A stretch of DNA of 64,000 bases from Azolla caroliniana (taxonomy: Eukaryota; Plantae; Polypodiophyta): NCBI GenBank assembly GCA_043228905.1, contig JBHGNT010000074.1:54670-118669 (forward strand), read 5' to 3'. A program made the translations under genes and the position numbers. The notes under the pieces were generated by a model, which had not been told where the DNA came from, ran no database searches, and worked only from the letters and a program-made list of their open reading frames with translations. This document shows positions 4,190-27,063 of this stretch, in pieces (position 1 is the first letter of the stretch; every line of letters starts with the position of its first letter).

Positions 4190-7100
4190 ATTTTGAAACT
4201 CAGGTCGAGAGACATGACGAAATTAGCAAATTTGAGGAGGTAGTGGAGAAGAGCGCGTGAGTAAATTAAAATGTTCATACCTGGCTCGTGTGAAATCGGA
4301 TTTTTGTGTTCAAACATGCGAATCGAAGCTAACAACGCTAGCTATGATATGTAAATAAAAAATCAAGATTTCGAAACTCAGGTCGAGAGATATGAACAAA
4401 ATTAGCAAACTTGAGGAGGGAGTTGAGAAGAGCCGTTGAGCAAATTAAAATGTTCATACCTGGCTCGTGTGATATCGGATTTCTGTGTTCAAACATGCCA
4501 AACGAAGCTAACAATGCTAGCTATGATATGGAATTAAAAAACCAAGATTTTGAAACTCAGGTCGAGAGACTTGACGAAATTAGCAAATTTGAGGAGAGAG
4601 TTGAGAACTGCCCTTGAGCAAATTAAAATGTTCATACCTGGCTCGTGTGATATCGGATTTCTGTGTTCAAACATGCAAAACGAAGGTAACAACGCTAGCC
4701 TTTATATGGAATTAAGAAACCAAGATTTTGAAACTCAGGTCGAGAGACATGACGAAATTAGCAAATTTGAGGAGGGAGTGGAGAAGAGTGCATGAGCAAA
4801 TTAAAATGTTCATACCTGGCTCGTGTGATATCGGAGTTCTGTGTTCAAACAAGCGAATCAAAGCTAACAACGCTAGCTATGATATGGAATTAAAAAACCA
4901 AGATTTTGAAACTCAGGTCGAGAGACATGAACAAAATTAGCAAACTTGAGGAGGGAGTTGAGAAGAGCCCTTGAGCAAATTAAAATGTTCATACCTGGCT
5001 TGTGTGATATCGGATTTTTGTGTTCAAACATGCGAATCGAAGATAACAACGCAAGGTATGATATGAAATTAAAAAACCAAGATTTTGAAACTCAGGTCGG
5101 GAGACATGACGAAATTAGCATATTTGAGGAGGTAGTGGAGAAGAGCGCGTAAGTAAATTAAAATGTTCATACCTGGCTCGTGTGATAACGGATTTTGGTG
5201 TTCAAACATGCGAATCGAAGTTAACAACGCTAGCTATGATATGGAAATAAAAAATGAAGACTCTTAAACTCAGGTCGAGAGACATACACAGAATTAGCAA
5301 ACTTGAGGAGGGAGTTTAGAAGAGCCCTTGAGAAAATTAAAATGTTCATACGTGGCTCGTGTGATATCGGATTTTTGTGTTCAAACATGCGAATCGAAGC
5401 TAACAACGCTAGCTATGATATGGAATTAAAAAACCAATATTTTGAAACTAAAGTCGAGAGACATGACGAAATTAGCATATTTGAGGAGGTAGTGGAGAAG
5501 AGCGCGTGAGTAAATTAAAATGTTCATACTTGGCTCGTGTGATATCGGATTTCTGTGTTCAAACAAGCGAATCGAAGCTAACAACGCTAGCTATGATATG
5601 GAATTAAAAAACCAAGATTTTGAAACTCAGGTTGAGAGACATGAACAAAATTAGCAAACTTGAGGAGGGAGTTGAGAAGAGCCCTTGAGAAAATTAAAAT
5701 GTTCATACCTGGCTGATGTGATATCAGATTTTTGTGTTCAAACTTGCGAATCAAAGCTAACAACGGTAGCTATGATATGGAATTAAAAAATAAAGATTTT
5801 GATACTTAGGTCGAGAGATATGAACAAAATTAGCAAACTTGAGGAGGGAGTTTAGAAGAGCCCTTCAGAAAATTAAAATATTCATACCTGGGTCGTGTGA
5901 TAACGGATTTCTGTATTCAAACATGCGAATCGAAGCTAACAACGCTAGCTATGATATGGAATTAAAAAACCGAGATTTTGAAACTCAGGTCGAGAGATAT
6001 GAAAAAATTAGCAAATTTTAGGAGGGAGTGGAGAAGAGCCCTTGATCAAATTAAAATGTTCATAGCTGGCTGGTGTGATATCTGATTTTTGTGTGCAAAC
6101 ATGCGAATCGAAGCTAACAACGCTAGCTATAATATGTAACGAAAAAATCAAGATTTCGAAGCTCAGGTCAATAGACATGAACAAAATTAGCAAACTTGAG
6201 GAGGGAGTTTAGAAGAGCCCTTGAGCAAATTAAAATGTTCATACCTGGCTCGTGTGATAACGGATTTCTGTGTTGAAACATGCGAATCGAAGCTAACAAC
6301 GCTAGCTATGATATGGAATTAAAAAACCAAGATTTTGAAACTCAGGTCGAGAGACATAAACAAAATTAGCAAACTTGAGGAGGGAGTTGAGAAGAGCCCT
6401 TGAGCAAATTAAAATGTTCATACCTGGCTCGTGTGATATCGGATTTCTGTGTTCAAACATGCGAATCGAAGCTAACAACGCTAGCTATGATATGGAATTA
6501 AAAAACCAAGATTTAGAAACTCAGGTCGAGAGATATGAAAAAATTAGCAAATTTTAGGAGGGAGTGGAGAAGAGCCATTGATCAAATTAAAATGTTCATA
6601 GCTGGCTGGTGTGATATCTGATTTTTGTGTTCAAACATACAAATCGAAGCTAACAACGCTAGCTATAATATGTAACTAAAAAATCAAGATTTCGAAACTC
6701 AGGTCGAGAGACATGAACAAAATTAGCAAACTTGAGGAGGGAGTTGAGATGAGTCCTTTAGCAAATTAAAATGTTCATACCTGGCTCGTGTGATATCGGA
6801 TTTCTGTGTTCAAACATGCGAAACGAAGCTAATAACGCTAATTATGATATGAAATTAAAAAACCGAGATTTTGAAACTCAGGTCGAGAGATATGAAAAAA
6901 TTAGCAAATTTTAGGAGGGAGTGGAGAAGAGCCCTTGATCAAATTAAAATGTTCATAGCTGGTTGGTGTGATATCGGATTTTTGTGTTCAAACATGCGAA
7001 TCGAAGCTAACAACGCTAGCTATGATATGTAACTAAAAAGTAAAGATTTCGAAGCTCAGGTCGAGAGACATGAACAAAATTAGCAAACTTGAGGAGGGAG

Positions 7101-8708
7101 TTGAGAAGAGTCCTTCAACAAATTAAAATGTTCATACCTGGCTCGTGTGATATCGGATTTCTGTGTTCAAACAAGCGAATCGAAGCTAACAACGCTAGCT
7201 ATGATATGGAATTAAAAAACCAAGATTTTGAAACTTAGGTCGAGAGACATGAATAAAACTAGCAAATTTGAGGAGGGAGGTGAGAAGGTCCCGTGAGTAA
7301 ATTAAAATGTTCATACCTGGCTACTGTATTATCGGATTTCAATGTTCAAACATTGGAATCGAAGCTAACAACGCTAGCTATGACATGGAATTAAAAAATC
7401 CAGATGTTGAAACTTAGGTCGAGAGACATGATGAAATTAGCAAATTTGAGGAGGGAGTTGAGAAGATCCTAAGAGTAAATTAAAATGTTCATATCTGGCT
7501 CGTGTGATATCGGACTTTTGTTTTCAAATATGCGTATCGAAGCTAACAACGCTATCTATGATATGGAATTGAAAAATTAAGATTTTGAAACTCAGGTAGA
7601 GAGACATGAAGAAATTAGCAAATTTGAGGAGGGACTTGAAAAGAGCCCGTGAGTAGATTAAAATGTTCATACCTGGCTCGTGTGATATCGGACTTTTGTG
7701 TTAAAACCTGCGAATCGAACCTAACAATGCTAGTTATCGAAGCTAACAACGCTAGCTATGACATGGAATTAAAAAATCGAGATGTTGTAACTCAGGTCGA
7801 GAGACATGAAGAAATTAGCAAATTTGAGGAGGGAGGTGAGAAGGGCCTATGTGTAAATTAAAATGTTCATACCTGGCTGCTGTGATATCGGATTTATATG
7901 TTCAAACATTGGAATCGAAGCTAACAACGCTAGCTATGACATGGAATTAAAAAATCGAGATTTTTAAACTCAGGTCGAGAGACATGAAGAGATTAGCAAA
8001 TTTGAGAAGGGAGTTGAGAACTGCTCGTGTGTAAATTAAAATGTTCATACCTGGCTCGTGTGATATCTGATTTATATGTTCAAACACTGGAATCGAAGCT
8101 AACAACGCTAGCTATGACATGAAATTAAAAAATCGAGATTTTGAAATTCAGGTCGAGAGACATGAAGAAATTAGCAAATTTAAGGAGGGAGGTGAGAAGG
8201 TCCCATGGGTAAATTAAAATGTTCATACCTGGCTGTTGTATTATCGGATTTCAATGTTCAAACATTGGAATCGAAGCTAACAACGCTAGCTATGACATGG
8301 AATTAAAAAATCGAGATGTTGAAACTCAGGTCGAGATACATGATGAAATTAGCAAATTTGAGGAGGGAGTTGAGAAGATCCTATGAGTAAATTAAAATGT
8401 TCATATCTGGCTCGTGTGATATCGGTCTTTTGTGTTCAAAGATGCGAATCGAAGCTAACAACACTAGCTATGGTATGGAATTAAAAAATGTAGATTTTAA
8501 AACTGAAGTCGAGAGACATGAAGAAATTAGCAAATTTGAGGAGGGACTTGAAAAGAGCCCGTGAGTAGATTAAAATGTTCATACCTGGCTCGTGTGATAT
8601 CGGATTTTTATGTTCAAACATGCGGATCGAAGCTAACAACGCTAGCTATGATATGGAATTAAAAAATAAAGATTTTGAAACTTAGATCTAAAGAAATGAA
8701 GAAATTCC
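4190..8708 (+). repeat. Divergent satellite subfamily block B, copy 1 (mixed 178/179-bp monomers)
   Basis: Diagnostic variants aattagcaaa, ctcaggtcgag, ggctcgtgtg, ccttgagcaaatt and a 179-bp monomer with gaacaaaattagcaaacttg; ORF-track spacings of 357 and 535-536 bp. Confidence 0.9.
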
Positions 8709-10809
8709 GAGAAGAGCCCGTCAGTACATTAAAATGTTCATACCTGGCCCATGTGATATCGGATTTTTGTGTTCAAAGATGCGAATCGAAGGCAACAACG
8801 CTAGCTCTGATATGGAATTAAAAAATCAAGATTTTGAAACTCAGATTGACAGACATGAAGAAATTACCAAAATAGAGGGGGGAGTTGAGAAGAGCGCGTC
8901 AGTATATTAAAATGTTCATACCTGGCCCATGTGATATCGGATTTGAGTGTTCAAACATGCGAATCGAAGCTAATAACGCTACCTATGACATGGATTTAAA
9001 AAATCAAGATTTTCAAACTCAGATCGACAGACATGAAGGAATTACCAAATTTGAGGAGGGAGTTGAGAAGAGCGCGTCCGTATATGAAAATGTTCCTACC
9101 TGGCTCGGATGATCTCGGATTTTTGTGTTGAAAGATGCGAATCGAAACTAACTACACTAGCTATGATATGGAGTTAAAAAATTAAGATTTTGAAACTCAA
9201 GTCGAGAGACATGAAGAAATTTGCAAGTTAGAGGAGGGAGTTGAGAAGAGCCCGTGAGTAAATTAAAATGTTCATACCTGGCCCATGTGATATCGGATTT
9301 TAGTGTTCAAAGATGCGAATCGAAGGTAACATCGCTAGCTATGATATCGAATTAAAAAATCAAGATTCTGAAACTCAGATCGACAGACATGAAGAAATTA
9401 CCAAATTAGAGGAGGGAGTTGAGAAGAGCGCGTCAGTATATTAAAATCTTCATACCTGGCCCATGTGATATCGGATTTTAGTGTTCAAAGATGCGAATCG
9501 AAGGTAACAACGCTAGCTATGATATGGACTTAAAAAATCAAGATCTTGAAAGTCATGTCCAGAGACATGAAGAAATGCTCAAGTTAGAGGAGGGAGTTGA
9601 GAAGAGCCCGTGAGTAAATTAAAATGTTCATACCTGGCCCATGTGATATCGGATTTTTGTGTTCAAAGATGCAAATCGAAGCTAACAACACTAGCTATGA
9701 TATGGAATTAAAAAATGTAGATTTTGAAAACTAAAGTCGAGAGACATGAAGAAATTCGCAAGTTAGAGGAGGGAGTTGAGAAGAGCCCATGAGTAAATTA
9801 AAATGTTCGTACCTGGCCCATGTGATATCGGATTTTAGTGTTCAAACATACGAATCGAAGCTAACAATGCTAGCTCTGATATGGAATTAAAACATGAGGA
9901 TTTTGAAACTCAGATCGACAGACATGAAGAAATTACCAAATTTGAGGAGGGAGTTGAGAAGAGCGGGTCAGTAAATTAAAATGTTCATACCTGGCTCGGG
10001 TGATCCCGGATTTTTGTGTTCAAAGATGCGAATCGAAGCTAACAACACTAGCTATGATATGGAATTAAAAAATCAAGATTTTGAAACTCAAGTCGAGAGA
10101 CATGAAGAAATTCGCAAGTTAGAGGAGGGAGTTGAGAAGAGCCCGTGAGTAAATTAAATTGTTCATACCTGGCCCATGTGATATCGGATTTTAGTGTTCA
10201 AAGATGCGAATCGAAGGTAACAACGCTAGCTCTGATATGGAATTAGAAAATCAAGATTTTGAAACTCAGATCGACAGACATGAAGAAATTACCAAATTAG
10301 AGGAGGGATTTGAGAAGAGAGCGTCAGTATATTAAAATCTTCATACCTGGCCCATGTGATATCGGATTTTAGTGTTCAAAGATGCGAATCGAAGGTAACA
10401 ACACTAGCTATGATATGGAATTAAAAAATCAAGATCTTGAAACTCATGTCGAGAGACATGAAGAAATGCTCAAGTTAGAGGAGGGAGTTGAGAAGAGCCC
10501 GTGAGTAAATTAAAATGTTCATACCTGGCCCATGTGATATCGGATTTTTGTGTTCAAAGATGTGAATCGAAGCTAACAACGCTAGCTCTGATATGGAATT
10601 AAAAACTCAAGATTTTGAAACTCAGATCGACAGACATGAAGAAATTACCAAATTAGACGAGGGAGTTGAGAAGAGCGCGTCAGTATATTAAAATCTTCAT
10701 ACCTGGCCCATGTGATATCGGATTTTAGTGTTCAAACATACGAATCGAAGCTAACAATGCTAGCTCTGATATGGAATTAAAAAATCAAGATTTTGAAACT
10801 CAGATCGAC

Positions 10810-13800
10810 AGACATGAAGAAATGCTCAAGTTAGAGGAGGGAGTTGAGAAGAGCCCATGAATAAATTAAAATGTTCGTACCTGGCCCATGTGATATCGGA
10901 TTTTAGTGTTCAAACATACGAATCGAAGCTAACAATGCTAGCTCTGATATGGAATTAAAAAATCAAGATTTTGAAACTCAGATCGACAGACATGAAGAAA
11001 TTACCAAATTTGAGGAGGGAGTTGGGAAGAGCGGGTCAATAAATTAAAATATTCATACCTGGCTCGGGTGATCCCGGATTTTAGTGTTCAAAGATGCGAA
11101 TCGAAGCTAACAACACTAGCTATGATATAAAATTAAAAAATCAAGATTTTGAAACTCAAGTCGAGAGACATGAAGAAATTCGCAAGTTATAGGAGGGAGT
11201 TGAGAAGAGCCCGTGAGTAATTTAAAATGTTCATACCTGGTCCATGTGATATCGGATTTTAGTCTTCAAACATGCGAATCGAAGCTAATAACGGTACCTA
11301 TAATATGGAATTAAAAAATGTGGATTTTAAAACTCAGATCGACAGACATGAAGAAATTACCAAATTTGAGGAGGGAGTTGAGAAGAGCGCGTCAGTATAT
11401 TAAAATATTCATACCTGGCTCGGGTGATCCCGGATTTTAGTGTTCAAAGATGCGAATCGAAGCTAAAAACACTAGCTATGATATGGAATTAAAAAATGTA
11501 GATTTTAAAACTCAAGTCGAGAGACATGAAGAAATTCGCAAGTTAGAGGAGGGAGTTGAGAAGAGCCCATGAGTAAATTAAAATGTTCATACCTGGTCCA
11601 TGTGATATCGGATTTCTATGTTCAAAGATGCGAATCGAAGGTAACAACGATAGCTCTGAAATGGACTTAAGAAATCAAAATTTTGAAACTCAGATCGATA
11701 GACATGAAGAAATTACCAAATTAGAGGAGGGAGTTGAGAAGAGCGCGTGAGTATATTAAAATGTTCATACCTGGCCTATGTGATATCGGATTTTCGTGTT
11801 CAAAGATGCGAATCGAAGCTAACAACGTTATCTATGAATTTGAATTAAAAAATCAATATTTTGAAAATCAAGTCGATAGACATGAAGAAATTCGCAAGTT
11901 AGAGGAGGGAGTTGAGAAGAGCCCGTGAGTAATTTAAAATGTTCATACCTGGCCCATGTGATATCGGATTTCTATGTTCAAAGATGCGAATCGAAGGTAA
12001 CAACGCTAGCTCTGATATGGAATTAAAAAATAAAGATTTTGAAACTCAGATCGATAGACATGAAGAAATTACCAAATTTGAGGAGGGAGTTGAGAAGAGC
12101 CCGTGAGTAATTTAAAATATTCATACCTGGCCCAGGTGATATCGGATTTTAGTGTTCAAAGATGTGAATCGAAGCTAACAACGCTAGCTCTGATATGGAA
12201 TTAAAAACTCAAGATTTTGAAACTCAGATCGACAGACATGAAGAAATTACCAAATTAGAGGAGGGAGTTGAGAAGAGCGCGTCAGTATATTAAAATCTTC
12301 ATACCTGGCCCATGTGATATCGGATTATAGTGTTCAAAGATGCGAATCGAAGGTAACAACACTAGCTATGATATGGAATTCAAAAATCAAGATCTTGAAA
12401 CTCATGTCGAGAGACATGAAGAAATGCTCAAGTTAGAGGAGGGAGTTGAGAAGAGCCCATGAATAAATTAAAATGTTCGTACCTGGCCCATGTGATATCG
12501 GATTTTAGTGTTCAAACATACGAATCGAAGCTAACAATGCTAGCTCTGATATGGAATTAAAAAATCAAGATTTTGAAACTCAGATCGACAGACATGAAGA
12601 AATTACCAAATTTGAGGAGGGAGTTGGGAAGAGCGGGTCAATAAATTAAAATATTCATACCTGGCTCGGGTGATCCCGGATTTTAGTGTTCAAAGATGCG
12701 AATCGAAGCTAACAACACTAGCTATGATATAAAATTAAAAAATCAAGATTTTGAAACTCAAGTCGAGAGACATGAAGAAATTCGCAAGTTAGAGGAGGGA
12801 GTTGAGAAGAGCCCGTGAGTAATTTAAAATGTTCATACCTGGTCCATGTGATATCGGATTTTAGTCTTCAAACATGCGAATCGAAGCTAATAACGGTACC
12901 TATAATATGGAATTAAAAAATGTGGATTTTAAAACTCAGATCGACAGACATGAAGAAATTACCAAATTTGAGGAGGGAGTTGAGAAGAGCGCGTCAGTAT
13001 ATTAAAATATTCATACCTGGCTCGGGTGATCCCGGATTTTAGTGTTCAAAGATGCGAATCGAAGCTAAAAACACTAGCTATGATATGGAATTAAAAAATG
13101 TAGATTTTAAAACTCAAGTCGAGAGACATGAAGAAATTCGCAAGTTAGAGGAGGGAGTTGAGAAGAGCCCATGAGTAAATTAAAATGTTCATACCTGGTC
13201 CATGTGATATCGGATTTCTATGTTCAAAGATGCGAATCGAAGGTAACAACGATAGCTCTGAAATGGACTTAAGAAATCAAAATTTTGAAACTCAGATCGA
13301 TAGACATGAAGAAATTACCAAATTAGAGGAGGGAGTTGAGAAGAGCGCGTGAGTATATTAAAATGTTCATACCTGGCCTATGTGATATCGGATTTTCGTG
13401 TTCAAAGATGCGAATCGAAGCTAACAACGTTATCTATGAATTTGAATTAAAAAATCAATATTTTGAAAATCAAGTCGATAGACATGAAGAAATTCGCAAG
13501 TTAGAGGAGGGAGTTGAGAAGAGCCCGTGAGTAATTTAAAATGTTCATACCTGGCCCATGTGATATCGGATTTCTATGTTCAAAGATGCGAATCGAAGGT
13601 AACAACGCTAGCTCTGATATGGATTTAAAAAATAAAGATTTTGAAACTCAGATCGATAGACATGAAGAAATTACCAAATTTGAGGAGGGAGTTGAGAAGA
13701 GCCCGTGAGTAATTTAAAATGTTCATACCTGGCCCAGGTGATATCGGATTTTAGTGTTCAAAGATGTGAATCGAAGCTAACAACGCTAGCTCTGATATGG

Positions 13801-16800
13801 AATTAAAAACTCAAGATTTTGAAACTCAGATCGACAGACATGAAGAAATTACCAAATTAGACGAGGGAGTTGAGAAGAGCGCGTCAGTATATTAAAATCT
13901 TCATACCTGGCCCATGTGATATCGGATTATAGTGTTCAAAGATGCGAATCGAAGGTAACAACACTAGCTATGATATGGAATTCAAAAATCAAGATCTTGA
14001 AACTCATGTCGAGAGACATGAAGAAATGCTCAAGTTAGAGGAGGGAGTTGAGAAGAGCCCATGAATAAATTAAAATGTTCGTACCTGGCCCATGTGATAT
14101 CGGATTTTAGTGTTCAAACATACGAATCGAAGCTAACAATGCTAGCTCTGATATGGAATTAAAAAATCAAGATTTTGAAACTCAGATCGACAGACATGAA
14201 GAAATTACCAAATTTGAGGAGGGAGTTGGGAAGAGCGGGTCAATAAATTAAAATATTCATACCTGGCTCGGGTGATCCCGGATTTTAGTGTTCAAAGATG
14301 CGAATCGAAGCTAACAACACTAGCTATGATATAAAATTAAAAAATCAAGATTTTGAAACTCAAGTCGAGAGACATGAAGAAATTCGCAAGTTATAGGAGG
14401 GAGTTGAGAAGAGCCCGTGAGTAATTTAAAATGTTCATACCTGGTCCATGTGATATCGGATTTTAGTCTTCAAACATGCGAATCGAAGCTAATAACGGTA
14501 CCTATAATATGGAATTAAAAAATGTGGATTTTAAAACTCAGATCGACAGACATGAAGAAATTACCAAATTTGAGGAGGGAGTTGAGAAGAGCGCGTCAGT
14601 ATATTAAAATATTCATACCTGGCTCGGGTGATCCCGGATTTTAGTGTTCAAAGATGCGAATCGAAGCTAAAAACACTAGCTATGATATGGAATTAAAAAA
14701 TGTAGATTTTAAAACTCAAGTCGAGAGACATGAAGAAATTCGCAAGTTAGAGGAGGGAGTTGAGAAGAGCCCATGAGTAAATTAAAATGTTCATACCTGG
14801 TCCATGTGATATCGGATTTCTATGTTCAAAGATGCGAATCGAAGGTAACAACGATAGCTCTGAAATGGACTTAAGAAATCAAAATTTTGAAACTCAGATC
14901 GATAGACATGAAGAAATTACCAAATTAGAGGAGGGAGTTGAGAAGAGCGCGTGAGTATATTAAAATGTTCATACCTGGCCTATGTGATATCGGATTTTCG
15001 TGTTCAAAGATGCGAATCGAAGCTAACAACGTTATCTATGAATTTGAATTAAAAAATCAATATTTTGAAAATCAAGTCGATAGACATGAAGAAATTCGCA
15101 AGTTAGAGGAGGGAGTTGAGAAGAGCCCGTGAGTAATTTAAAATGTTCATACCTGGCCCATGTGATATCGGATTTCTATGTTCAAAGATGCGAATCGAAG
15201 GTAACAACGCTAGCTCTGATATGGAATTAAAAAATAAAGATTTTGAAACTCAGATCGATAGACATGAAGAAATTACCAAATTTGAGGAGGGAGTTGAGAA
15301 GAGCCCGTGAGTAATTTAAAATGTTCATACCTGGCCCAGGTGATATCGGATTTTAGTGTTCAAAGATGTGAATCGAAGCTAACAACGCTAGCTCTGATAT
15401 GGAATTAAAAACTCAAGATTTTGAAACTCAGATCGACAGACATGAAGAAATTACCAAATTAGAGGAGGGAGTTGAGAAGAGCGCGTCAGTATATTAAAAT
15501 CTTCATACCTGGCCCATGTGATATCGGATTATAGTGTTCAAAGATGCGAATCGAAGGTAACAACACTAGCTATGATATGGAATTCAAAAATCAAGATCTT
15601 GAAACTCATGTCGAGAGACATGAAGAAATGCTCAAGTTAGAGGAGGGAGTTGAGAAGAGCCCATGAATAAATTAAAATGTTCGTACCTGGCCCATGTGAT
15701 ATCGGATTTTAGTGTTCAAACATACGAATCGAAGCTAACAATGCTAGCTCTGATATGGAATTAAAAAATCAAGATTTTGAAACTCAGATCGACAGACATG
15801 AAGAAATTACCAAATTTGAGGAGGGAGTTGGGAAGAGCGGGTCAATAAATTAAAATATTCATACCTGGCTCGGGTGATCCCGGATTTTAGTGTTCAAAGA
15901 TGCGAATCGAAGCTAACAACACTAGCTATGATATAAAATTAAAAAATCAAGATTTTGAAACTCAAGTCGAGAGACATGAAGAAATTCGCAAGTTAGAGGA
16001 GGGAGTTGAGAAGAGCCCGTGAGTAATTTAAAATGTTCATACCTGGTCCATGTGATATCGGATTTTAGTCTTCAAACATGCGAATCGAAGCTAATAACGG
16101 TACCTATAATATGGAATTAAAAAATGTGGATTTTAAAACTCAGATCGACAGACATGAAGAAATTACCAAATTTGAGGAGGGAGTTGAGAAGAGCGCGTCA
16201 GTATATTAAAATATTCATACCTGGCTCGGGTGATCCCGGATTTTAGTGTTCAAAGATGCGAATCGAAGCTAAAAACACTAGCTATGATATGGAATTAAAA
16301 AATGTAGATTTTAAAACTCAAGTCGAGAGACATGAAGAAATTCGCAAGTTAGAGGAGGGAGTTGAGAAGAGCCCATGAGTAAATTAAAATGTTCATACCT
16401 GGTCCATGTGATATCGGATTTCTATGTTCAAAGATGCGAATCGAAGGTAACAACGATAGCTCTGAAATGGACTTAAGAAATCAAAATTTTGAAACTCAGA
16501 TCGATAGACATGAAGAAATTACCAAATTAGAGGAGGGAGTTGAGAAGAGCGCGTGAGTATATTAAAATGTTCATACCTGGCCTATGTGATATCGGATTTT
16601 CGTGTTCAAAGATGCGAATCGAAGCTAACAACGTTATCTATGAATTTGAATTAAAAAATCAATATTTTGAAAATCAAGTCGATAGACATGAAGAAATTCG
16701 CAAGTTAGAGGAGGGAGTTGAGAAGAGCCCGTGAGTAATTTAAAATGTTCATACCTGGCCCATGTGATATCGGATTTCTATGTTCAAAGATGCGAATCGA

Positions 16801-19756
16801 AGGTAACAACGCTAGCTCTGATATGGATTTAAAAAATAAAGATTTTGAAACTCAGATCGATAGACATGAAGAAATTACCAAATTTGAGGAGGGAGTTGAG
16901 AAGAGCCCGTGAGTAATTTAAAATGTTCATACCTGGCCCAGGTGATATCGGATTTTAGTGTTCAAAGATGTGAATCGAAGCTAACAACGCTAGCTCTGAT
17001 ATGGAATTAAAAACTCAAGATTTTGAAACTCAGATCGACAGACATGAAGAAATTACCAAATTAGACGAGGGAGTTGAGAAGAGCGCGTCAGTATATTAAA
17101 ATCTTCATACCTGGCCCATGTGATATCGGATTATAGTGTTCAAAGATGCGAATCGAAGGTAACAACACTAGCTATGATATGGAATTCAAAAATCAAGATC
17201 TTGAAACTCATGTCGAGAGACATGAAGAAATGCTCAAGTTAGAGGAGGGAGTTGAGAAGAGCCCATGAATAAATTAAAATGTTCGTACCTGGCCCATGTG
17301 ATATCGGATTTTAGTGTTCAAACATACGAATCGAAGCTAACAATGCTAGCTCTGATATGGAATTAAAAAATCAAGATTTTGAAACTCAGATCGACAGACA
17401 TGAAGAAATTACCAAATTTGAGGAGGGAGTTGGGAAGAGCGGGTCAATAAATTAAAATATTCATACCTGGCTCGGGTGATCCCGGATTTTAGTGTTCAAA
17501 GATGCGAATCGAAGCTAACAACACTAGCTATGATATAAAATTAAAAAATCAAGATTTTGAAACTCAAGTCGAGAGACATGAAGAAATTCGCAAGTTATAG
17601 GAGGGAGTTGAGAAGAGCCCGTGAGTAATTTAAAATGTTCATACCTGGTCCATGTGATATCGGATTTTAGTCTTCAAACATGCGAATCGAAGCTAATAAC
17701 GGTACCTATAATATGGAATTAAAAAATGTGGATTTTAAAACTCAGATCGACAGACATGAAGAAATTACCAAATTTGAGGAGGGAGTTGAGAAGAGCGCGT
17801 CAGTATATTAAAATATTCATACCTGGCTCGGGTGATCCCGGATTTTAGTGTTCAAAGATGCGAATCGAAGCTAAAAACACTAGCTATGATATGGAATTAA
17901 AAAATGTAGATTTTAAAACTCAAGTCGAGAGACATGAAGAAATTCGCAAGTTAGAGGAGGGAGTTGAGAAGAGCCCATGAGTAAATTAAAATGTTCATAC
18001 CTGGTCCATGTGATATCGGATTTCTATGTTCAAAGATGCGAATCGAAGGTAACAACGATAGCTCTGAAATGGACTTAAGAAATCAAAATTTTGAAACTCA
18101 GATCGATAGACATGAAGAAATTACCAAATTAGAGGAGGGAGTTGAGAAGAGCGCGTGAGTATATTAAAATGTTCATACCTGGCCTATGTGATATTGGATT
18201 TTCGTGTTCAAAGATGCGAATCGAAGCTAACAACGTTATCTATGAATTTGAATTAAAAAATCAATATTTTGAAAATCAAGTCGATAGACATGAAGAAATT
18301 CGCAAGTTAGAGGAGGGAGTTGAGAAGAGCCCGTGAGTAATTTAAAATGTTCATACCTGGCCCATGTGATATCGGATTTCTATGTTCAAAGATGCGAATC
18401 GAAGGTAACAACGCTAGCTCTGATATGGAATTAAAAAATAAAGATTTTGAAACTCAGATCGATAGACATGAAGAAATTACCAAATTTGAGGAGGGAGTTG
18501 AGAAGAGCCCGTGAGTAATTTAAAATGTTCATACCTGGCCCAGGTGATATCGGATTTTAGTGTTCAAAGATGTGAATCGAAGCTAACAACGCTAGCTCTG
18601 ATATGGAATTAAAAACTCAAGATTTTGAAACTCAGATCGACAGACATGAAGAAATTACCAAATTAGAGGAGGGAGTTGAGAAGAGCGCGTCAGTATATTA
18701 AAATCTTCATACCTGGCCCATGTGATATCGGATTATAGTGTTCAAAGATGCGAATCGAAGGTAACAACACTAGCTATGATATGGAATTCAAAAATCAAGA
18801 TCTTGAAACTCATGTCGAGAGACATGAAGAAATGCTCAAGTTAGAGGAGGGAGTTGAGAAGAGCCCATGAATAAATTAAAATGTTCGTACCTGGCCCATG
18901 TGATATCGGATTTTAGTGTTCAAACATACGAATCGAAGCTAACAATGCTAGCTCTGATATGGAATTAAAAAATCAAGATTTTGAAACTCAGATCGACAGA
19001 CATGAAGAAATTACCAAATTTGAGGAGGGAGTTGGGAAGAGCGGGTCAATAAATTAAAATATTCATACCTGGCTCGGGTGATCCCGGATTTTAGTGTTCA
19101 AAGATGCGAATCGAAGCTAACAACACTAGCTATGATATAAAATTAAAAAATCAAGATTTTGAAACTCAAGTCGAGAGACATGAAGAAATTCGCAAGTTAG
19201 AGGAGGGAGTTGAGAAGAGCCCGTGAGTAATTTAAAATGTTCATACCTGGTCCATGTGATATCGGATTTTAGTCTTCAAACATGCGAATCGAAGCTAATA
19301 ACGGTACCTATAATATGGAATTAAAAAATGTGGATTTTAAAACTCAGATCGACAGACATGAAGAAATTACCAAATTTGAGGAGGGAGTTGAGAAGAGCGC
19401 GTCAGTATATTAAAATATTCATACCTGGCTCGGGTGATCCCGGATTTTAGTGTTCAAAGATGCGAATCGAAGCTAAAAACACTAGCTATGATATGGAATT
19501 AAAAAATGTAGATTTTAAAACTCAAGTCGAGAGACATGAAGAAATTCGCAAGTTAGAGGAGGGAGTTGAGAAGAGCCCATGAGTAAATTAAAATGTTCAT
19601 ACCTGGTCCATGTGATATCGGATTTCTATGTTCAAAGATGCGAATCGAAGGTAACAACGATAGCTCTGAAATGGACTTAAGAAATCAAAATTTTGAAACT
19701 CAGATCGATAGACATGAAGAAATTACCAAATTAGAGGAGGGAGTTGAGAAGAGCGC
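10810..19756 (+). repeat. 9-mer higher-order repeat (1,602 bp), about 5.6 near-identical units left of the insertion
   Basis: Identical pseudo-ORFs at 11734, 13336, 14938, 16540 and 18142 (spacing 1,602 = 9 x 178); diagnostic monomer variants recur at the same period. Confidence 0.95.
19753..19756. other. Target-site duplication, left copy (GCGC)
   Basis: The uninterrupted HOR monomer reads gaagagcgcgtgag; the left flank ends gaagagcgc and the right flank starts gcgcgtgag. HOR register confirms 4 bp: 19744+1602+7303+4 = 28653, the observed start of the next pseudo-ORF. Confidence 0.93.
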
Positions 19757-20547
19757 TGTCAAGTTATTACGCAAGTGCGTATGGAAACGAGGCGGGACCG
19801 CGGGGGTCTCGAACCAAAGAGCAAGCGAGGGAGGAGAAAGAGAGACAACCGGCTGCGCAGGACCGGGGACACACCGGGACACGGCCCTTCAGCACGGAGA
19901 ACGCGAACGATCCCCGACACAGACAGATGCGAATGACTAAATGTGTATATTGACAAAAACGGCTAACACGACTACAACCCTCGATGGGGCACAGGTTGGT
20001 TACACCCGAACAGGCCGGCGAACAGATGCCGATGCCTGTTCGCTTCGACGCACAAAGGGCAGCAGGTCGGAGGTGCTGCCGGAAGCACTCGGGCTTTCCT
20101 CGAAACAGCGCGAGCCTCCTCGGAACCCTGCGCAGAAAGCTATGGAGCTCAAGAAGGAAGGAAACAGAGAGAGAAGCGTCCAGAAACGGTCCGACAGCAC
20201 TTCCTCCTCCCTGTGCGAGATGTCTGCAATAGTTCTTTCCTGCTCCTTATATAGGCCGACGAGCAGGCCGTCACGTCAGCTTTATTCCCTGTCCCTTTTG
20301 GACAGGGATTCGCTTCGTCCTTCACGCATCCGCGTAGTTACGCCGCCGACTCGTACGGTTCCTTCGCTCGCTCGCGCGACCGAAAAGACTGTTCGCGCGG
20401 TCTTTGTCTCCACTTGTGATAGGGCCCGTTCCCGCCGATTATCCTCCTCCTTCGCTTCTATGTACAACTCGAAGCGTGCGCGCGTGAAGAACCGGCTCCC
20501 ACGCCTTGGTGCGCCGATTCCGCCTATGGACGGTTTTCTTCACGACA
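19757..20547 (-). repeat. 3' LTR (791 bp)
   Basis: Direct repeat of 26269..27059 (offset 6,512); + strand starts tgtcaag and ends cacgaca; adjacent to the PPT. Confidence 0.97.
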
Positions 20548-20560
20548 TCCGCCCCCACCT
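20548..20560 (-). other. Polypurine tract
   Basis: Minus strand AGGTGGGGGCGGA (11 of 13 purines) directly abuts the 3' LTR start TGTCGTG. Confidence 0.85.
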
Positions 20561-20618
20561 AACCGTGCATCCTCCGGTATGCACCAAGAGAGTTGGGACG
20601 GAGAAAACCGGCCCGTCT

Positions 20619-23600
20619 TCATTTCTCGCCCGTCGGTTCTTCCTCGTTTTCGGATCTTTCGTCACTGCTGACTAGGAGAGCTGGGTCGGGCTCGTCGTCG
20701 TGTCGCTTCTTGTATGCTTTGATCCGCTTCCCTGCAACCGGTATCGCCATCCTCGTGCCGTCTAGTTCCGCCAGGTGATATGTCCCGTTGTCATTGGCGC
20801 TCCGCACCACGTAAGGCCCGAACCACCTTCGCGCGAACTTCCGTGTAGCTCGGTGCTGGTTGTCGAGGCTGCTGTCGTAGACGAGCACCCAGTCACCTTC
20901 GTCGATTTTCTTCGGTCGGAGCCGGTGCGTTCGGTCGAACCGGGCTTTGTTCTTTGTCCTCGCCACCCGGAGCTTCTCCGTAGCCAGTGCCACGTCCTCC
21001 GGTCTCCGCTCGAGCTGTCGTATACGTGCGGCCAACAACTCCTCCCGGCTCATCTCGTCCCTCCAGTCGACCGTTGCCCACGAGGAGATCGTCCGTTCTA
21101 TCGGCATGATCGGCTTCTGGCCGAACATGAGCTCCGTCGGCATGTACCTGGTTACCGAACTGTGCGTGGTCCGGTCTGCCCACAAAGCATAAGGCAGCAG
21201 CCGCGGCCAGTTTCCGACTTGGCCTCCGCATGCCCGAACCAACGCCTTGACGATCGGTCCGTGTCCGCGCTCCACCTTTCCATTCGCCTCCGGATTGTAC
21301 GCAGTGGTGAGCGAGAGCTTGACTCCCAGCCGGTCGAACAGCTCCGCGGCTTCTTCGGCGTCCAACTCCCCTCGGTCAGCCACGATCTTCCCGACGCACC
21401 CGTACCGGCATATCACGTCCTCGATTAGGAACCGGCATACGGCCGCGGTCGTTTTGTTCGGAAGGGCCCGGCCTTCCACCTGGTTCGTCAGATTCTCCCG
21501 CGCTAGGACCAGGTACCGCATTTGTCCTACCCCCGTTGGCATCGTCACCAGATCTACCATCCATTTGAAGTGGATGGTCGGAGGGTACGTAGGGTGAAGC
21601 TCGTCCCGGTGTCGGACCACGGAGTGCATCTGACAGCTCTCGCAAGTTGTCACTAATCGGTGCACGTCCTGGTACAGTCCCGGCCACCAATACTTCCCCT
21701 TCAGTTTCTCAAACGTAGCCCACGTTCCACGGTGTCCAGCCCAAGGGCTGTCGTGGTAGGCCGTCAGCAGCTCCTCCTGTTCTTCCTTCATCGCCACCAC
21801 CCGGAGCGGAGCGCCGTCCCTCTTCCTCGGGTGTTTCCATAGGCAGCCATCCCGGAGAAAGAACCGGTACGCTTTCTTCCGGATCCTGTTGGCCTCGTCC
21901 TTCGTCCATGACGCATCGGGCGTCATTGTCTTCAAAAACCCGCCGATCTGCAGCCACTCCCCGTCGTACTTGCTCGCGTCGAACTCGTTAAGCGCCGGAG
22001 TGCTCCTCCCGTCGGTCGTTATGTACGCCGCCTCGAAGAAATCCACGCCGACTTCTTCGTCTTCCGAAACCATGCCGCCCTCGTCGTCGAACCTCGCCCT
22101 CGAAAGCATGTCGGCCATGGCGTTGTCTTTCCCGGAAATGTGTCGTATTTCCGGGTCCAGGGACTTGATGTACGCTATCCACCTGAGCATCGCCAGGTCC
22201 GGAGTCGCGCATCCGGAAACCATACCGAGAATCGGCAGGCAATCCGTCTCGATGATCACTTCCGTCCCTATCAGGTAGTCTTTGTCGGCCTTAACCGCCG
22301 AAACAATACCCCAGAGTTCGCGTTTAACCTGGGCGTATCCTCGCTGCCGTTCACTGAGGACTTTCGCGCCGAATCGGATCGGAAACCGATTGCCGTCCTC
22401 GTCTTCCTGGTTCACGACCCATCCGATCCCGGTCGGACTGGTATCCACCGTTATGAATACCGGGGTACCCTTCCCGTAAACCGCCTTCCGGATTGCCGGT
22501 GCCGCTGCAAGGGCCTCTTTCAGCTTCCGGACCGATTCCGCGTGCTTGTCTAGCCATTCGAACCTTCGCCCCTTTTTCAGCAACCCGTACAGTGGCTCCG
22601 CGACGTGTGCGTAATGCGGGATCCATATGTGGTAGAACGCGCATGCCCCCAGGAATCTCCGTACTTCCGTGACCGAGCTGCAGTCGGGCTTCATCGCGGA
22701 GATGGCTTCTACCTTTGCCGGAGACGGTTTCCGGCCATATGGTCCGCACAGGTGTCCGACCACCATGATTTCTGACTGCCCGAAGGCCGACTTCTCCCCG
22801 GAGAAGGTGAGTCCCGCATCCTCTAGCCTTCGTAGCACCTTCTCGCAGTCGTCGACGTGCGTCGCCACGAATCGCCGGCATCCGTCCGGCCCGATCGTCT
22901 CGTCCCTTTCTTCCACCGGGCATCCCTTGATCGGGATGTCGTCCAGAAACGGCATGGTGATGTCCGGGATACAGTCCCTCAGAACCTTGTTCATCGCATT
23001 CACCATGTGGGCCACCGAGTTGGTCCCTCCCTGCGGCAGTGTACACATCCGAACTAGGCCGAGGGGAGTTCGCATCGTCGTAATGTCTCTGCTCTCCACG
23101 GCTAGCTGGAACTGGTCGTACCCTGAGTATAGATCCCCGACCGAGTAAATTGACCTTCCGGCGAAGGCCTCCGCGAATTCGTCTATGGTCGGTCCGATCC
23201 CTGCGTTCCGAATGGTCACTCGATTGACCGGCTGCAGGTCCTGGATGAAGCGCAACGAACCGTTTTTCTTCGGTACGGTAAACCAGCGGTTTGAATACGG
23301 GGCGCTCGATGGCTCGAGAATGCCCATATCAACCTTCTGCCTCAGCAGCTCCATCAACTTCGGGATGTGAGCTCTCGGAACCGGGATTGGCTTGAGATTC
23401 CATGGTACATGCGGTACCGTGAATATCACCATCGGCTCCACGATCGTCGGGTCAACGCACCCGATTTCCTCCGGCGAGAATGCGAAGGCTTTCCCGTGCC
23501 TTCCGAGCATTCTCCGAAACCGGTCTTCCTCCGCCGGCAGTAGGAACCCGCCCCCACCGATTTTGAGCTCTCGGAGCGTCTCGTCAGTGAAGGTGTGCCC

Positions 23601-24101
23601 TATGCAGGCCGGATCTCGTAGACTAGGGTCCGATGCAACCCCTTTGATTCTCGACGCGCTGTCCTCCGGTAAGGGTGCCGCTACTGGCCTTACCTTCCGG
23701 TCCACAGTCTTGTACTTGGTGTTTACGTGGGCCGTCCGAACTGACTCGAGCCCTCGACCGAAGTCCGCGATGACTTCGTACATCTCCTCGGAACACACCG
23801 GTATCGTCCGGTCTTCGTTAAGGTCCTCTTCGACTACCTTTCCCATCATTCCCAAGGTGTCGTCGAAGGAGACTGCCTCTACGGCTCCGTTGATTTCTTC
23901 GTCAGGGCCGAGAACTCCGCACGCTCGAAGTCTCCCCTCCGTCTTTGTTTTCTCTCGGCCGGCGATGCCGACCATCGTACATGCTCCGCTGTCGGAGAAG
24001 CAAAATGTCCTACCTATTGTACACGGTTCTCTCGTACAGATGTGGGGTTTTCCCGGAGCGTCCGGACTGTCGCGGCCCCACGCCTTGGCAGTCCTCTCTA
24101 A
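20619..24101 (-). CDS. pol: Pol ORF: reverse transcriptase - RNase H - integrase (first ATG at 23975, but the frame is open back to the frameshift site)
   Basis: RT motifs GDLYSGYDQ, LPQG, FLDD (22938..22949); RNase H VDTSPTGIG, KRELWGI, ETDC, ADMLSR; integrase HHCC (YHDSPWAGHRG...CESC), D-D-E (MVDLV, VADRG, KVERGH) and GPY/F module (WFGPYVV). No stop codon between 24110 and the ATG at 23975 in this frame. Confidence 0.96.
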   Translation of the reverse strand, partial: LERTAKAWGRDSPDAPGKPHICTREPCTIGRTFCFSDSGACTMVGIAGREKTKTEGRLRACGVLGPDEEINGAVEAVSFDDTLGMMGKVVEEDLNEDRTIPVCSEEMYEVIADFGRGLESVRTAHVNTKYKTVDRKVRPVAAPLPEDSASRIKGVASDPSLRDPACIGHTFTDETLRELKIGGGGFLLPAEEDRFRRMLGRHGKAFAFSPEEIGCVDPTIVEPMVIFTVPHVPWNLKPIPVPRAHIPKLMELLRQKVDMGILEPSSAPYSNRWFTVPKKNGSLRFIQDLQPVNRVTIRNAGIGPTIDEFAEAFAGRSIYSVGDLYSGYDQFQLAVESRDITTMRTPLGLVRMCTLPQGGTNSVAHMVNAMNKVLRDCIPDITMPFLDDIPIKGCPVEERDETIGPDGCRRFVATHVDDCEKVLRRLEDAGLTFSGEKSAFGQSEIMVVGHLCGPYGRKPSPAKVEAISAMKPDCSSVTEVRRFLGACAFYHIWIPHYAHVAEPLYGLLKKGRRFEWLDKHAESVRKLKEALAAAPAIRKAVYGKGTPVFITVDTSPTGIGWVVNQEDEDGNRFPIRFGAKVLSERQRGYAQVKRELWGIVSAVKADKDYLIGTEVIIETDCLPILGMVSGCATPDLAMLRWIAYIKSLDPEIRHISGKDNAMADMLSRARFDDEGGMVSEDEEVGVDFFEAAYITTDGRSTPALNEFDASKYDGEWLQIGGFLKTMTPDASWTKDEANRIRKKAYRFFLRDGCLWKHPRKRDGAPLRVVAMKEEQEELLTAYHDSPWAGHRGTWATFEKLKGKYWWPGLYQDVHRLVTTCESCQMHSVVRHRDELHPTYPPTIHFKWMVDLVTMPTGVGQMRYLVLARENLTNQVEGRALPNKTTAAVCRFLIEDVICRYGCVGKIVADRGELDAEEAAELFDRLGVKLSLTTAYNPEANGKVERGHGPIVKALVRACGGQVGNWPRLLPYALWADRTTHSSVTRYMPTELMFGQKPIMPIERTISSWATVDWRDEMSREELLAARIRQLERRPEDVALATEKLRVARTKNKARFDRTHRLRPKKIDEGDWVLVYDSSLDNQHRATRKFARRWFGPYVVRSANDNGTYHLAELDGTRMAIPVAGKRIKAYKKRHDDEPDPALLVSSDERSENEEEPTGEK

Positions 24102-24107
24102 AAATCC
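24042..24107 (-). promoter_or_regulatory. Predicted -1 programmed ribosomal frameshift signal (slippery heptamer plus stem-loop/pseudoknot)
   Basis: G_GAT_TTT (24107..24101) directly precedes the ORF1 stop TAG; 6-nt spacer; stem GGACTG (24094..24089)/CAGTCC (24069..24064); loop GTGGGG (24081..24076) complementary to CCCCAC (24047..24042); pol is in the -1 frame. Confidence 0.82.
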
Positions 24108-26224
24108 TCTCGGTTTTCGGAACCGAGGGAGTCGCGGTTACGTTCGTGGTTCGGCCGTACCGTCAGAAACTGGACCGAATGGCGCCCGTCTTGGCTTTTG
24201 ACCCTCGCGTAGGCCGAACCATTGTCCAACACCTTGGTCTCCATCCGCGCCGCCGTGATGTACGGCTCTCCCAGTATGACCGGATGCGAAGACGTCTCCT
24301 GGACGAAGAAGTGCTGGTCAATCTCGACGTCGCCGATCTTGACTCGCACATTCGGACAGGCCCCGTGCAGTTCCTCGGTGGCGCGCGTTGCTGCCCTTAT
24401 TTTCCACCCGTGCTTGGTGTTGATCGGCCATTTGCCCTTCTTATAGAAGTCCATGGACATCAAATTGATCTCCGATCCGTGGTCCACCAAAGCTATCACC
24501 GGTTCCTGGACATCGCCGATCTTCACCGGGGTTTCCGTGGTCGCTCGGGCCCAGTGTGGTCTCGAATAGTGGCTTTCCGCCCACTCGTCTCCCAGCGCCA
24601 TGTCGTCTAGGTGCGTTGTCCGCACTTCCACCGGTCTTTCCGGTTCGGTCTCCGTTGACAGCCTCTTCCGTTTCACCAAGTCCACGATGGAGTCGTGGAA
24701 CTCTTTCTTGGCGATTCCCAGCACCTCTCGTAACGACAGCTCCACCTTGCTGTCGAGGATTCGTTCCTCCAGGACCTTTCGTAAGTCCGTGGTCCTTTCT
24801 ATCTCCGTCCCCAGACGGTACCCGCCCTTCTGGGGTTTATCTTGCGTACCGGCCCCGCCGGCTTCGTCCCGTCGCGGCCCGGACCGGGTCTCGTATCGTT
24901 GTGAGGGCCCGATCGTCCCGGGTTTCCCCACCCGCTTCTCTTCTACCAGAGCCTCGTAGTTCTGGCAAGCGGCTTCCACGAAGCCCGTCTTTTCCTCGAC
25001 CGGGTCGCTCCACCCGGTCATCTCCCGTACCCGTTTCTCCGCACGGTCCGATTCCTCCCCTCTAAGCCCTGCACCGGCAAGGCCTTCTAGCATCGTCGGC
25101 CAGAATCCGGCTTTGCTTTCCTTTCGGCCCTCGCCGCCCCCGACTCGAATGCCGGCCGACGCCGAGTAGTGGACGGTTTCCGCGTGTCGGGCCGCCGCCT
25201 CTTCCATCAACCTTTTCATACCACCACGCCCGTCGTTTCGGCTCAGGGCCCTTCGGGTGTCGCTGGCATGCACCCGTCCTTCCCACAGGTACACCACCCT
25301 GTTCCTCAGCGCCTCCGCGAAGTCGCCGCAGTCCTTCCGAATGTGGCCGACTTCGTCGCACCACATGCACCTGTTTCCTGCCGCCGGCCGTCGGTCACGA
25401 GCCGGTTCGCCTCCTTCCCTTCGGGCCTGCGCGATTTGGAGGTCCTTTATCGCCTTCGTCAATTCCTCCAGCGCCGCTCCTCCGGTTGAGCCTCTGACTA
25501 CGCCGGTCGAAGCCGAACCCGTTTCCAACCATTCTCGGGTCTCTTCCTTTCGCACCTGTGGCGCTGGTTCGAGTTTCCTTGCTGCGACCGAGCCCGACCC
25601 GGTTGCCCCGTTATCCGCCCATTCTCGCCGTTTGTCGAAACGGCCACAGACCTTCCTGACAGCCGCCCAGTCGGTAGTGAGCCCGTCTTCGGTTTCCAGC
25701 AAGAGGCCCACTTGCTCCCGATCCCGCTCGTCGACCGTCTTGACAAACAGTAAGACCCGGCTCGTGTCCAGGATGGTACGGTCGAGCGCCGAAAGGCGCG
25801 CAAAGTTTTCCTCGAACTCCCGGAGGAGTGCCGACGCGTTTCTTCCCTTCCCCGGGGATTCCACCCATTCCATGAACCTTCGCTTCGAAAGCCGGAGCGC
25901 GTCGTCCAGCCCGTATTTCTCTAGGAGACGACCTTCGAACTCTTCCCAGGTACGGCTCTCCGCCCGCACCTCGAGCACCTCCGCATGGATGCTCGGCATC
26001 GCCACTCGGGGAAATCCGGCAAGACGCCTTTCTTCCGGAATGTCCCGCATCAGCATTTCTGCACCGTAGGACGCCAGATACTTCGTGGCATCCCTCCCAT
26101 CGAACCGGCCGATCGTGCCGACGACCGCCTCAATAGCTCTGTCGAGGGCACCGGTGCCCTCGCGCGCGTTTACAATCCGATCCACGGCCGAAGCCATGGC
26201 CTCTGCAAGATCCGACCCCCTCAT
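24098..26224 (-). CDS. gag: Gag-protease polyprotein (ORF1)
   Basis: CCHC zinc knuckle CMWCDEVGHIRKDC (25328..25369); retropepsin-like ALVDHGSEINLM (DHG at 24476..24484) and VILGEPY. The ORF track starts at a GTG inside the PBS (26251); the first ATG is at 26224. Confidence 0.92.
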   Translation of the reverse strand: MRGSDLAEAMASAVDRIVNAREGTGALDRAIEAVVGTIGRFDGRDATKYLASYGAEMLMRDIPEERRLAGFPRVAMPSIHAEVLEVRAESRTWEEFEGRLLEKYGLDDALRLSKRRFMEWVESPGKGRNASALLREFEENFARLSALDRTILDTSRVLLFVKTVDERDREQVGLLLETEDGLTTDWAAVRKVCGRFDKRREWADNGATGSGSVAARKLEPAPQVRKEETREWLETGSASTGVVRGSTGGAALEELTKAIKDLQIAQARREGGEPARDRRPAAGNRCMWCDEVGHIRKDCGDFAEALRNRVVYLWEGRVHASDTRRALSRNDGRGGMKRLMEEAAARHAETVHYSASAGIRVGGGEGRKESKAGFWPTMLEGLAGAGLRGEESDRAEKRVREMTGWSDPVEEKTGFVEAACQNYEALVEEKRVGKPGTIGPSQRYETRSGPRRDEAGGAGTQDKPQKGGYRLGTEIERTTDLRKVLEERILDSKVELSLREVLGIAKKEFHDSIVDLVKRKRLSTETEPERPVEVRTTHLDDMALGDEWAESHYSRPHWARATTETPVKIGDVQEPVIALVDHGSEINLMSMDFYKKGKWPINTKHGWKIRAATRATEELHGACPNVRVKIGDVEIDQHFFVQETSSHPVILGEPYITAARMETKVLDNGSAYARVKSQDGRHSVQFLTVRPNHERNRDSLGSENREDF

Positions 26225-26246
26225 CTTCTGCTCTTCTGCCGCCTCC

Positions 26247-26264
26247 TTCACGTCGGGTTCACCA
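26247..26264 (-). other. Primer-binding site complementary to tRNA-Trp
   Basis: Minus strand TGGTGAACCCGACGTGAA, 4 nt after the 5' LTR. The + strand TTCACGTCGGGTTCACCA matches the 3' end of plant cytosolic tRNA-Trp(CCA) as I recall it, and is close to the avian sarcoma-leukosis virus Trp PBS TGGTGACCCCGACGTGAT. Confidence 0.88.
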
Positions 26265-26268
26265 AAGA

Positions 26269-27059
26269 TGTCAAGTTATTACGCAAGTGCGTATGGAAAC
26301 GAGGCGGGACCGCGGGGGTCTCGAACCAAAGAGCAAGCGAGGGAGGAGAAAGAGAGACAACCGGCTGCGCAGGACCGGGGACACACCGGGACACGGCCCT
26401 TCAGCACGGAGAACGCGAACGATCCCCGACACAGACAGATGCGAATGACTAAATGTGTATATTGACAAAAACGGCTAACACGACTACAACCCTCGATGGG
26501 GCACAGGTTGGTTACACCCGAACAGGCCGGCGAACAGATGCCGATGCCTGTTCGCTTCGACGCACAAAGGGCAGCAGGTCGGAGGTGCTGCCGGAAGCAC
26601 TCGGGCTTTCCTCGAAACAGCGCGAGCCTCCTAGGAACCCTGCGCAGAAAGCTATGGAGCTCAAGAAGGAAGGAAACAGAGAGAGAAGCGTCCAGAAACG
26701 GTCCGACAGCACTTCGTCCTCCCTGTGCGAGATGTCTGCAATAGTTCTTTCCTGCTCCTTATATAGGCCGACGAGCAGGCCGTCACGTCAGCTTTATTCC
26801 CTGTCCCTTTTGGACAGGGATTCGCTTCGTCCTTCACGCATCCGCGTAGTTACGCCGCCGACTCGTACGGTTCCTTCGCTCGCGCGCGCGACCGAAAAGA
26901 CTGTTCGCGCGGTCTTTGTCTCCACTTGTGTTAGGGCCCGTTCCCGCCGATTATCCTCCTCCTTCGCTTCTATGTACAACTCGAAGCGTGCGCGCGTGAA
27001 GAACCGGCTCCCACGCCTTGGTGCGCCGATTCCGCCTATGGACGGTTTTCTTCACGACA
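26269..27059 (-). repeat. 5' LTR (791 bp)
   Basis: Direct repeat of 19757..20547 with 4 substitutions seen; followed on the minus strand by the PBS and gag. Confidence 0.97.
26759..26790 (-). promoter_or_regulatory. Probable LTR promoter: TATA box and upstream TGACGT (bZIP-type) motif
   Basis: Minus strand cc-TATATAA-gg at 26765..26759, about 295 nt into the LTR; TGACGTGA at 26790..26783. The same motifs occur in the 3' LTR at 20247..20278. Confidence 0.65.
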
Positions 27060-27063
27060 GCGC
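27060..27063. other. Target-site duplication, right copy (GCGC)
   Basis: Immediately follows the LTR end ...cacgaca; matches 19753..19756. Confidence 0.93.

Follow-up and report, generated by a model that had tools for sequence, protein, structure and literature searches.

A conserved slippery heptamer and predicted pseudoknot likely direct -1 frameshifting between protease and reverse transcriptase in Phygy-like retrotransposons

Introduction

Phygy elements, plant Ty3/gypsy retrotransposons outside the chromoviruses, are listed with a 4-bp NCGN target duplication, a tRNA-Trp primer in 81% of cases and, in Physcomitrium patens, a length of 7.66-9.97 kb; the same list gives their ORF organisation as not determined (PMC6317226). 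The usual spacer in -1 frameshift signals is 5-9 nt, and beta- and deltaretroviruses are described as having a pro-pol frameshift (PMC5009743). As cases of -2 frameshifting the same source names phage Mu, the arteriviruses and Trichomonas vaginalis virus 1 (PMC5009743), and on reporters -2 slippage was reported to work best when the spacer is shorter by 1-2 nt than for -1 slippage (PMC3458567).

Here we analyse a 64,000-nt stretch of DNA (the window) in which an initial annotation had proposed a -1 frameshift cassette between the protease and reverse transcriptase (RT) of a retrotransposon. The cassette proved to be real, with the heptamer, the UAG stop codon, the open -1 frame and both helices where they had been placed. 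The mechanism is a known one, like the -1 signals of retroviruses and plant viruses, and it is found in a Phygy-like Ty3/gypsy element. A literature search, conducted largely outside subscription journals, found neither a description of this signal nor a retrotransposon with a -2 shift.

Results

The 64-kb window consists of a 178-bp satellite array (~37% GC) that is interrupted by a single 60%-GC LTR retrotransposon of 7303 bp (7.3 kb) at 19757-27059 on the minus strand, the strand of all element features given below. The array (1-19756 and 27060-64000) is unbroken, its 178-bp unit showing 86-88% matches and a strong purine skew, and is centromere-like; earlier work on a 178-bp satellite in mosses did not turn up in the literature search. 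The 5' LTR (26269-27059; 791 bp, TG...CA) and the 3' LTR (19757-20547), which was delimited by LTR comparison, have four differences in 790 compared bases, and a GCGC target-site duplication (27060-27063, with the second copy at 19753-19756) fits the NCGN preference of Phygy. A primer-binding site (26247-26264) lies 4 nt past the 5' LTR and presumably matches the 3' end of tRNA-Trp, and a purine-rich tract (20548-20560) is seen in the sequence ahead of the 3' LTR. The element has the LTRs, the target duplication and the Gag-protease-RT-RNase H-integrase order of the Ty3/gypsy group, and is a single recent insertion into the satellite.

ORF1 (24098-26224) encodes Gag and an aspartic-protease-like domain in 708 amino acids from the first ATG, and ends EDF-stop. 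Its Gag part carries a CX2CX4HX4C motif (25369-25328) and DUF4100. The protease-like domain (24269-24529) matches Pfam Asp_protease_2 with an E value of 0.0064, below the curated cut-off, and its aspartate and glycine are invariant in 43 aligned proteins. A PDB sequence search gave only a weak match to Ty3 (E 0.52). The DHGS motif at 24484-24473 reads D-H-G-S-E in place of D-[ST]-G, a peculiarity that is kept family-wide. The pol ORF occupies the -1 frame (20619-24104), where a leader of ~128 residues is followed by RT, RNase H and integrase, as recognised by Pfam. The leader (24101-23720) has no Pfam match; in relatives it shows a recurring G-x-L...E-x-I-x-G...F-x-D-T-x-G-E-L pattern, and could be a small domain. 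The coding region fills the interior of the element, and neither a chromodomain nor an extra RNase H was found among its ORFs and Pfam domains.

At the junction, ORF1 reads GAG GAT TTT TAG, in agreement with the initial annotation. The slippery heptamer G_GAU_UUU (24101-24107), called from the sequence and from relatives, is in ORF1 phase and is followed directly by the UAG stop (24100-24098), while the -1 frame reads FLERTAKAWGRDSP... across the junction and is free of stops from 24137 to 20619 (1172 codons), so that it leads into pol as had been stated. The site is thus of the X_XXY_YYZ type, in phase with an overlapping -1 ORF, in its G_GA form; GGATTTT occurs only once over both strands of the element. 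Umbra- and dianthoviruses are listed as using G_GA in place of XXX (PMC5009743), and the site had aptly been called plant-virus-like.

A 6-nt spacer (24095-24100), placed from the sequence and the alignment, opens with the ORF1 stop and leads to stem 1, whose 5' strand (24087-24094) forms seven of eight pairs in this copy with a 3' strand (24064-24071) defined by the alignment of relatives. This helix includes the pairing already noticed between GGACTG (24094-24089) and CAGTCC (24069-24064), 6 nt past the heptamer. The odd position is a C-A mismatch at 24088, which is U in 49-76% of summed depth in four DNA runs of near-identical copies, where stem 1 is complete. Within the loop of stem 1 lies GUGGGG (24076-24081), the 5' strand of stem 2, and the match recorded earlier to CCCCAC (24042-24047) downstream is its 3' strand, both being defined by covariation. 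A CCGGA-cgc-UCCGG hairpin (24065-24053) had been drawn simply between the two stems; this required correction, as two of its C's are common to the 3' strand of stem 1. As a part of the signal the hairpin was rejected, being 37.5% paired with 207 of 500 shuffles as high. Folding of the junction as a single sequence gave a z of -1.13 against shuffles, which is not significant, and no Rfam family matched it. Since the single sequence folds no better than shuffles, the support for the structure comes from relatives.

Sequencing runs and metagenome contigs served as the source of copies, most loci coming from one series of assemblies. The metagenome scan covered the best 80 of 167 loci (51-98% protease identity, two of which ran off the contig), and the window together with the 65 of these loci that have RT on the contig forms a set of 66 elements. 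Named homologues come from Physcomitrium patens, Riccia sorocarpa and Adiantum nelumboides, the P. patens proteins being nearest, and taken by themselves would point to a bryophyte as the likely host; no relatives were found in viral contigs.

Among the 79 junctions that could be scored from the best 80 of 167 loci, the caller found a heptamer in 71: 62 GGATTTT, four GGATTTC, two GGGTTTT, one GGTTTTC and two GGTTTTT. Of the eight uncalled junctions, three lack the cassette, and in the other five it adjoins an ORF1 that is broken. Since the caller demanded U-UUY, those bases are conserved by construction and the informative part of the heptamer is the leading GG, which is present in all 38 non-redundant representatives (<90% identity). 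In these representatives 12 different residues precede the site, and G stands at 30% of third positions elsewhere. In five lineages (L049, L064, L073, L077 and L079) the stop of ORF1 comes five codons after the heptamer and falls within stem 1, and a stop beside the heptamer is therefore not required.

Covariation was scored in the 38 representatives on a MAFFT alignment that had not been fitted to the structure. Stem 1 joins positions +7..+14 after the heptamer to +30..+37 in 8 bp, with 96% of cells paired and compensatory changes on both sides in six of the eight pairs, and its register, 6 nt past the heptamer, does not vary among the 36 representatives that are of the -1 type. In stem 2, loop positions +20..+25 pair with a segment in +49..+59, covarying for example as GUGGGG/CCCCAC, GCGAGA/UCUCGC and ACAGGG/CCCUGU. 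Here two-sided changes were counted in 26 cells, against 8.8 when shuffled, and none of 500 shuffles was as high; as the representatives are related, such counts cannot be read as probabilities, but the real pairing also outdoes slid controls and partner swaps. The best-helix score of stem 2 was 15.9, and fell to 13.9 when partners were swapped and to 11.7 on shuffling. Since stems 1 and 2 cross, they would form a pseudoknot with a first loop of 5 nt, a linker of ~4 nt and a last loop of 14-16 nt, a prediction that the comparison of relatives supports well. The layout, the heptamer, the 6-nt spacer and the crossing helices are kept down to ~50% protease identity. Non-conservation of heptamer and stems had been named in advance as counting against the cassette; both stems and the heptamer are instead conserved, with covariation.

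We conclude from these sequence comparisons that the conserved heptamer and the predicted pseudoknot very probably drive -1 frameshifting from the Gag-protease ORF into the RT-RNase H-integrase ORF. By analogy with established -1 frameshifting (PMC5009743), translation would mostly end at the UAG that follows the heptamer, yielding Gag-protease. The pseudoknot would hold up ribosomes while tRNA-Asp (P site) and tRNA-Phe (A site) occupy GAU UUU, and a minority of these ribosomes would re-pair on GGA UUU and go on to make a Gag-protease-RT-RNase H-integrase polyprotein. To judge from the layout, each Gag would come with a protease, and the shift would lower the level of RT, RNase H and integrase alone.

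Homopolymer runs are error-prone, and the U run of this copy could in principle carry a 1-nt indel or an assembly error that broke a single gag-pol ORF. A single fused ORF in other copies had been named at the outset as a finding that would speak for such an error. Among the 66 elements with both ORFs readable (from the best 80 of 167 loci), pol is in the -1 frame in 62, in the +1/-2 frame in four and in frame with ORF1 in none; two of the four (L061 and L070) open in -1 and change frame through an indel further on. This family-wide -1 phase by itself refutes the indel reading. The protein homologues are of the same kind, ORF1 ending in DF in 63 of the 120 listed (of 228 found) and having DF or GF five residues before its end in 23 more of these 120, with DF endings present also in distant representatives at 50% identity. 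No indel at the U run is among the differences listed in four DNA runs of near-identical copies, where contigs only were compared. Long fused proteins do exist, but all 21 of them (P0151-P0171) are predicted gene models of Riccia sorocarpa that omit the junction segment and make their joins at varying places, and Riccia ORF1 proteins ending in DF exist too. These models are likely annotation artefacts that reflect predicted introns, a real intron in Riccia being a possible alternative, and we regard an error in the U run as having practically no chance of explaining the junction. Production of pol by Ogre-like splicing, from a subgenomic RNA or from an internal AUG, with the structure serving another role such as packaging, deserves more weight, since Ogre is split at the same place by an intron and many elements have a methionine ~20 codons ahead of RT. 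Against this, the two ORFs overlap without a spacer, and in 36 of the 38 representatives the variable leader of 120-150 codons stays free of stops as far as RT, or as far as the contig reaches. No early AUG in pol is common to all 38; the ATG at 23975, which the initial annotation had doubted as the pol start, occurs at most in this copy and those closest to it. In RNA data from a related organism, 444 and 246 reads (mostly <95% alike) cover the whole element thinly and mostly in sense, and at their depth of ~5-9 contain no splice joint at the junction, which is weak evidence; one RNA-type contig runs through the junction. The structure is, moreover, fixed at 6 nt from a slippery heptamer, and we consider these other routes to pol improbable in comparison with -1 frameshifting.

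Two related loci, L046 and L057, depart from this pattern (candidate -2 sites at L046:2836-2900 and L057:2498-2560). They are sisters in the protease tree (support 100/98) and 81-82% identical; L075, a -1 element with G_GUU_UUC, is sister to the pair in that tree with weak support (87/80), and the pol tree is a quick tree that does not include it. With the heptamer at 2836-2842 in L046 and at 2498-2504 in L057, both loci read CAG GUU UUU (site AG_GUU_UUU), where the nearby -1 elements L058 and L062 read CAG GAU UUY, and in both the pseudoknot is one base closer, leaving a 5-nt spacer. The -1 frame closes at once in L046, with UGA directly after the site, and after five codons in L057, while pol is open in the -2 frame from the site for 1153 and 1100 codons, respectively. 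In L057, -2-frame stops seven codons upstream confine the shift to the site. Taken together, these features of the two sequences make a natural switch to -2 frameshifting probable, in which an A-to-U change in the heptamer and the loss of one spacer base would have turned a -1 cassette into a -2 signal. It is possible, though we think it the poorer account, that these two loci instead use a +1 shift or represent a dead lineage with an inherited 1-nt deletion. A +1 and a -2 shift lead into the same frame and UUU_U in L057 allows the former, only two lineages are concerned, and ORF1 of the L046 contig is open for only 287 codons. L046, however, has no good re-pairing codon for +1, and shorter spacers are reported to favour -2 (PMC4937337, PMC3458567). 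Nor does a dead lineage sit well with a dN of ~0.1 at a dS of 1.2-1.3 in both ORFs, or with whole pol ORFs of 1181 (L046) and 1106 (L057) codons; the retention of the pseudoknot one base closer in both loci argues against a +1 shift and a dead lineage alike. The same is true of the ORF1 proteins, since QVFD is the ending of all six listed members of the L046-type cluster whose sequence extends to the C terminus, and five 724-residue ORF1 proteins among the 15 listed members share that ending. A search for further members of the candidate -2 lineage turned up the same two clusters only, among 120 listed of 158.

Discussion

On balance we favour, with some reserve, the broader reading that the Phygy-like elements of non-seed plants are an old family in which a pseudoknot-driven shift after the protease meters the supply of RT and integrase, and that one lineage switched from -1 to an RNA-structure-driven -2 shift by one heptamer substitution and a spacer shorter by one base. 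The -1 signal comes with dozens of natural variants of its predicted pseudoknot, and the predicted frameshift would explain why gene predictors mis-model these elements. If the switch is real, L046 and L057 are a natural case of the reporter result that slippage changes from -1 to -2 when the spacer is shortened by 1-2 nt (PMC3458567), and would provide a natural -2 retrotransposon together with an evolutionary test of the mRNA-tension model.

The element resembles Phygy in its GCGC duplication, which fits the 4-bp NCGN type, in the lack of an extra domain and in its close homologues in Physcomitrium patens, and differs in being 7303 bp long, below the listed 7.66-9.97 kb, and in having relatives that reach a liverwort and a fern (PMC6317226). 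Since the listed range comes from one species, we call the element Phygy-like. It shares with Ogre and Retand the split between Gag-protease and RT; Ogre is described as having a spliced intron-like spacer and Retand a single in-frame stop, whereas here there are a -1 ORF overlap, a slippery site and a predicted pseudoknot (PMC6317226). The predicted shift would therefore be a third way to part Gag-protease from RT, after the intron of Ogre and the stop of Retand.

The initial annotation had regarded a gag-pro/pol split as the alpharetroviral arrangement, and the layout does correspond, but it is not peculiar to alpharetroviruses, being found also in Ogre, Retand and the beta- and deltaretroviruses. 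The protease of Rous sarcoma virus is part of Gag. In PMC5009743 that protease is described as part of pol. With the pro-pol sites of MMTV and HTLV and the gag-pro/pol site of Rous sarcoma virus, the present signal, as predicted, shares a -1 shift between protease and RT and a pseudoknot; it differs from these retroviruses in its Ty3/gypsy polymerase, the lack of env and the use of one shift, compared with two in MMTV and HTLV (PMC5009743). Dictyostelium Skipper was also considered as a parallel and was set aside, as a pro-pol shift in this element was not borne out by the passage located in the literature. The G_GAU_UUU heptamer and nearby stop are as in the sites of dianthoviruses and of an umbravirus, pea enation mosaic virus RNA2, whose stimulator is described as a stem-loop with long-range pairing, unlike the compact local pseudoknot predicted here (PMC5009743). 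The likeness to these viral sites is likely convergent.

For the candidate -2 lineage, the closest described case is the arterivirus nsp2TF -2/-1 site GG_GUU_UUU, at which the -1 frame stops immediately (PMC4937337): L046 and L057 have G_GUU_UUU, with UGA next in the -1 frame of L046. The arterivirus site is described as protein-stimulated with a 10-nt spacer, whereas L046 and L057 have a predicted RNA pseudoknot at 5 nt (PMC4937337), and, unlike nsp2TF, the shifted product of L046 and L057 would be the essential polymerase.
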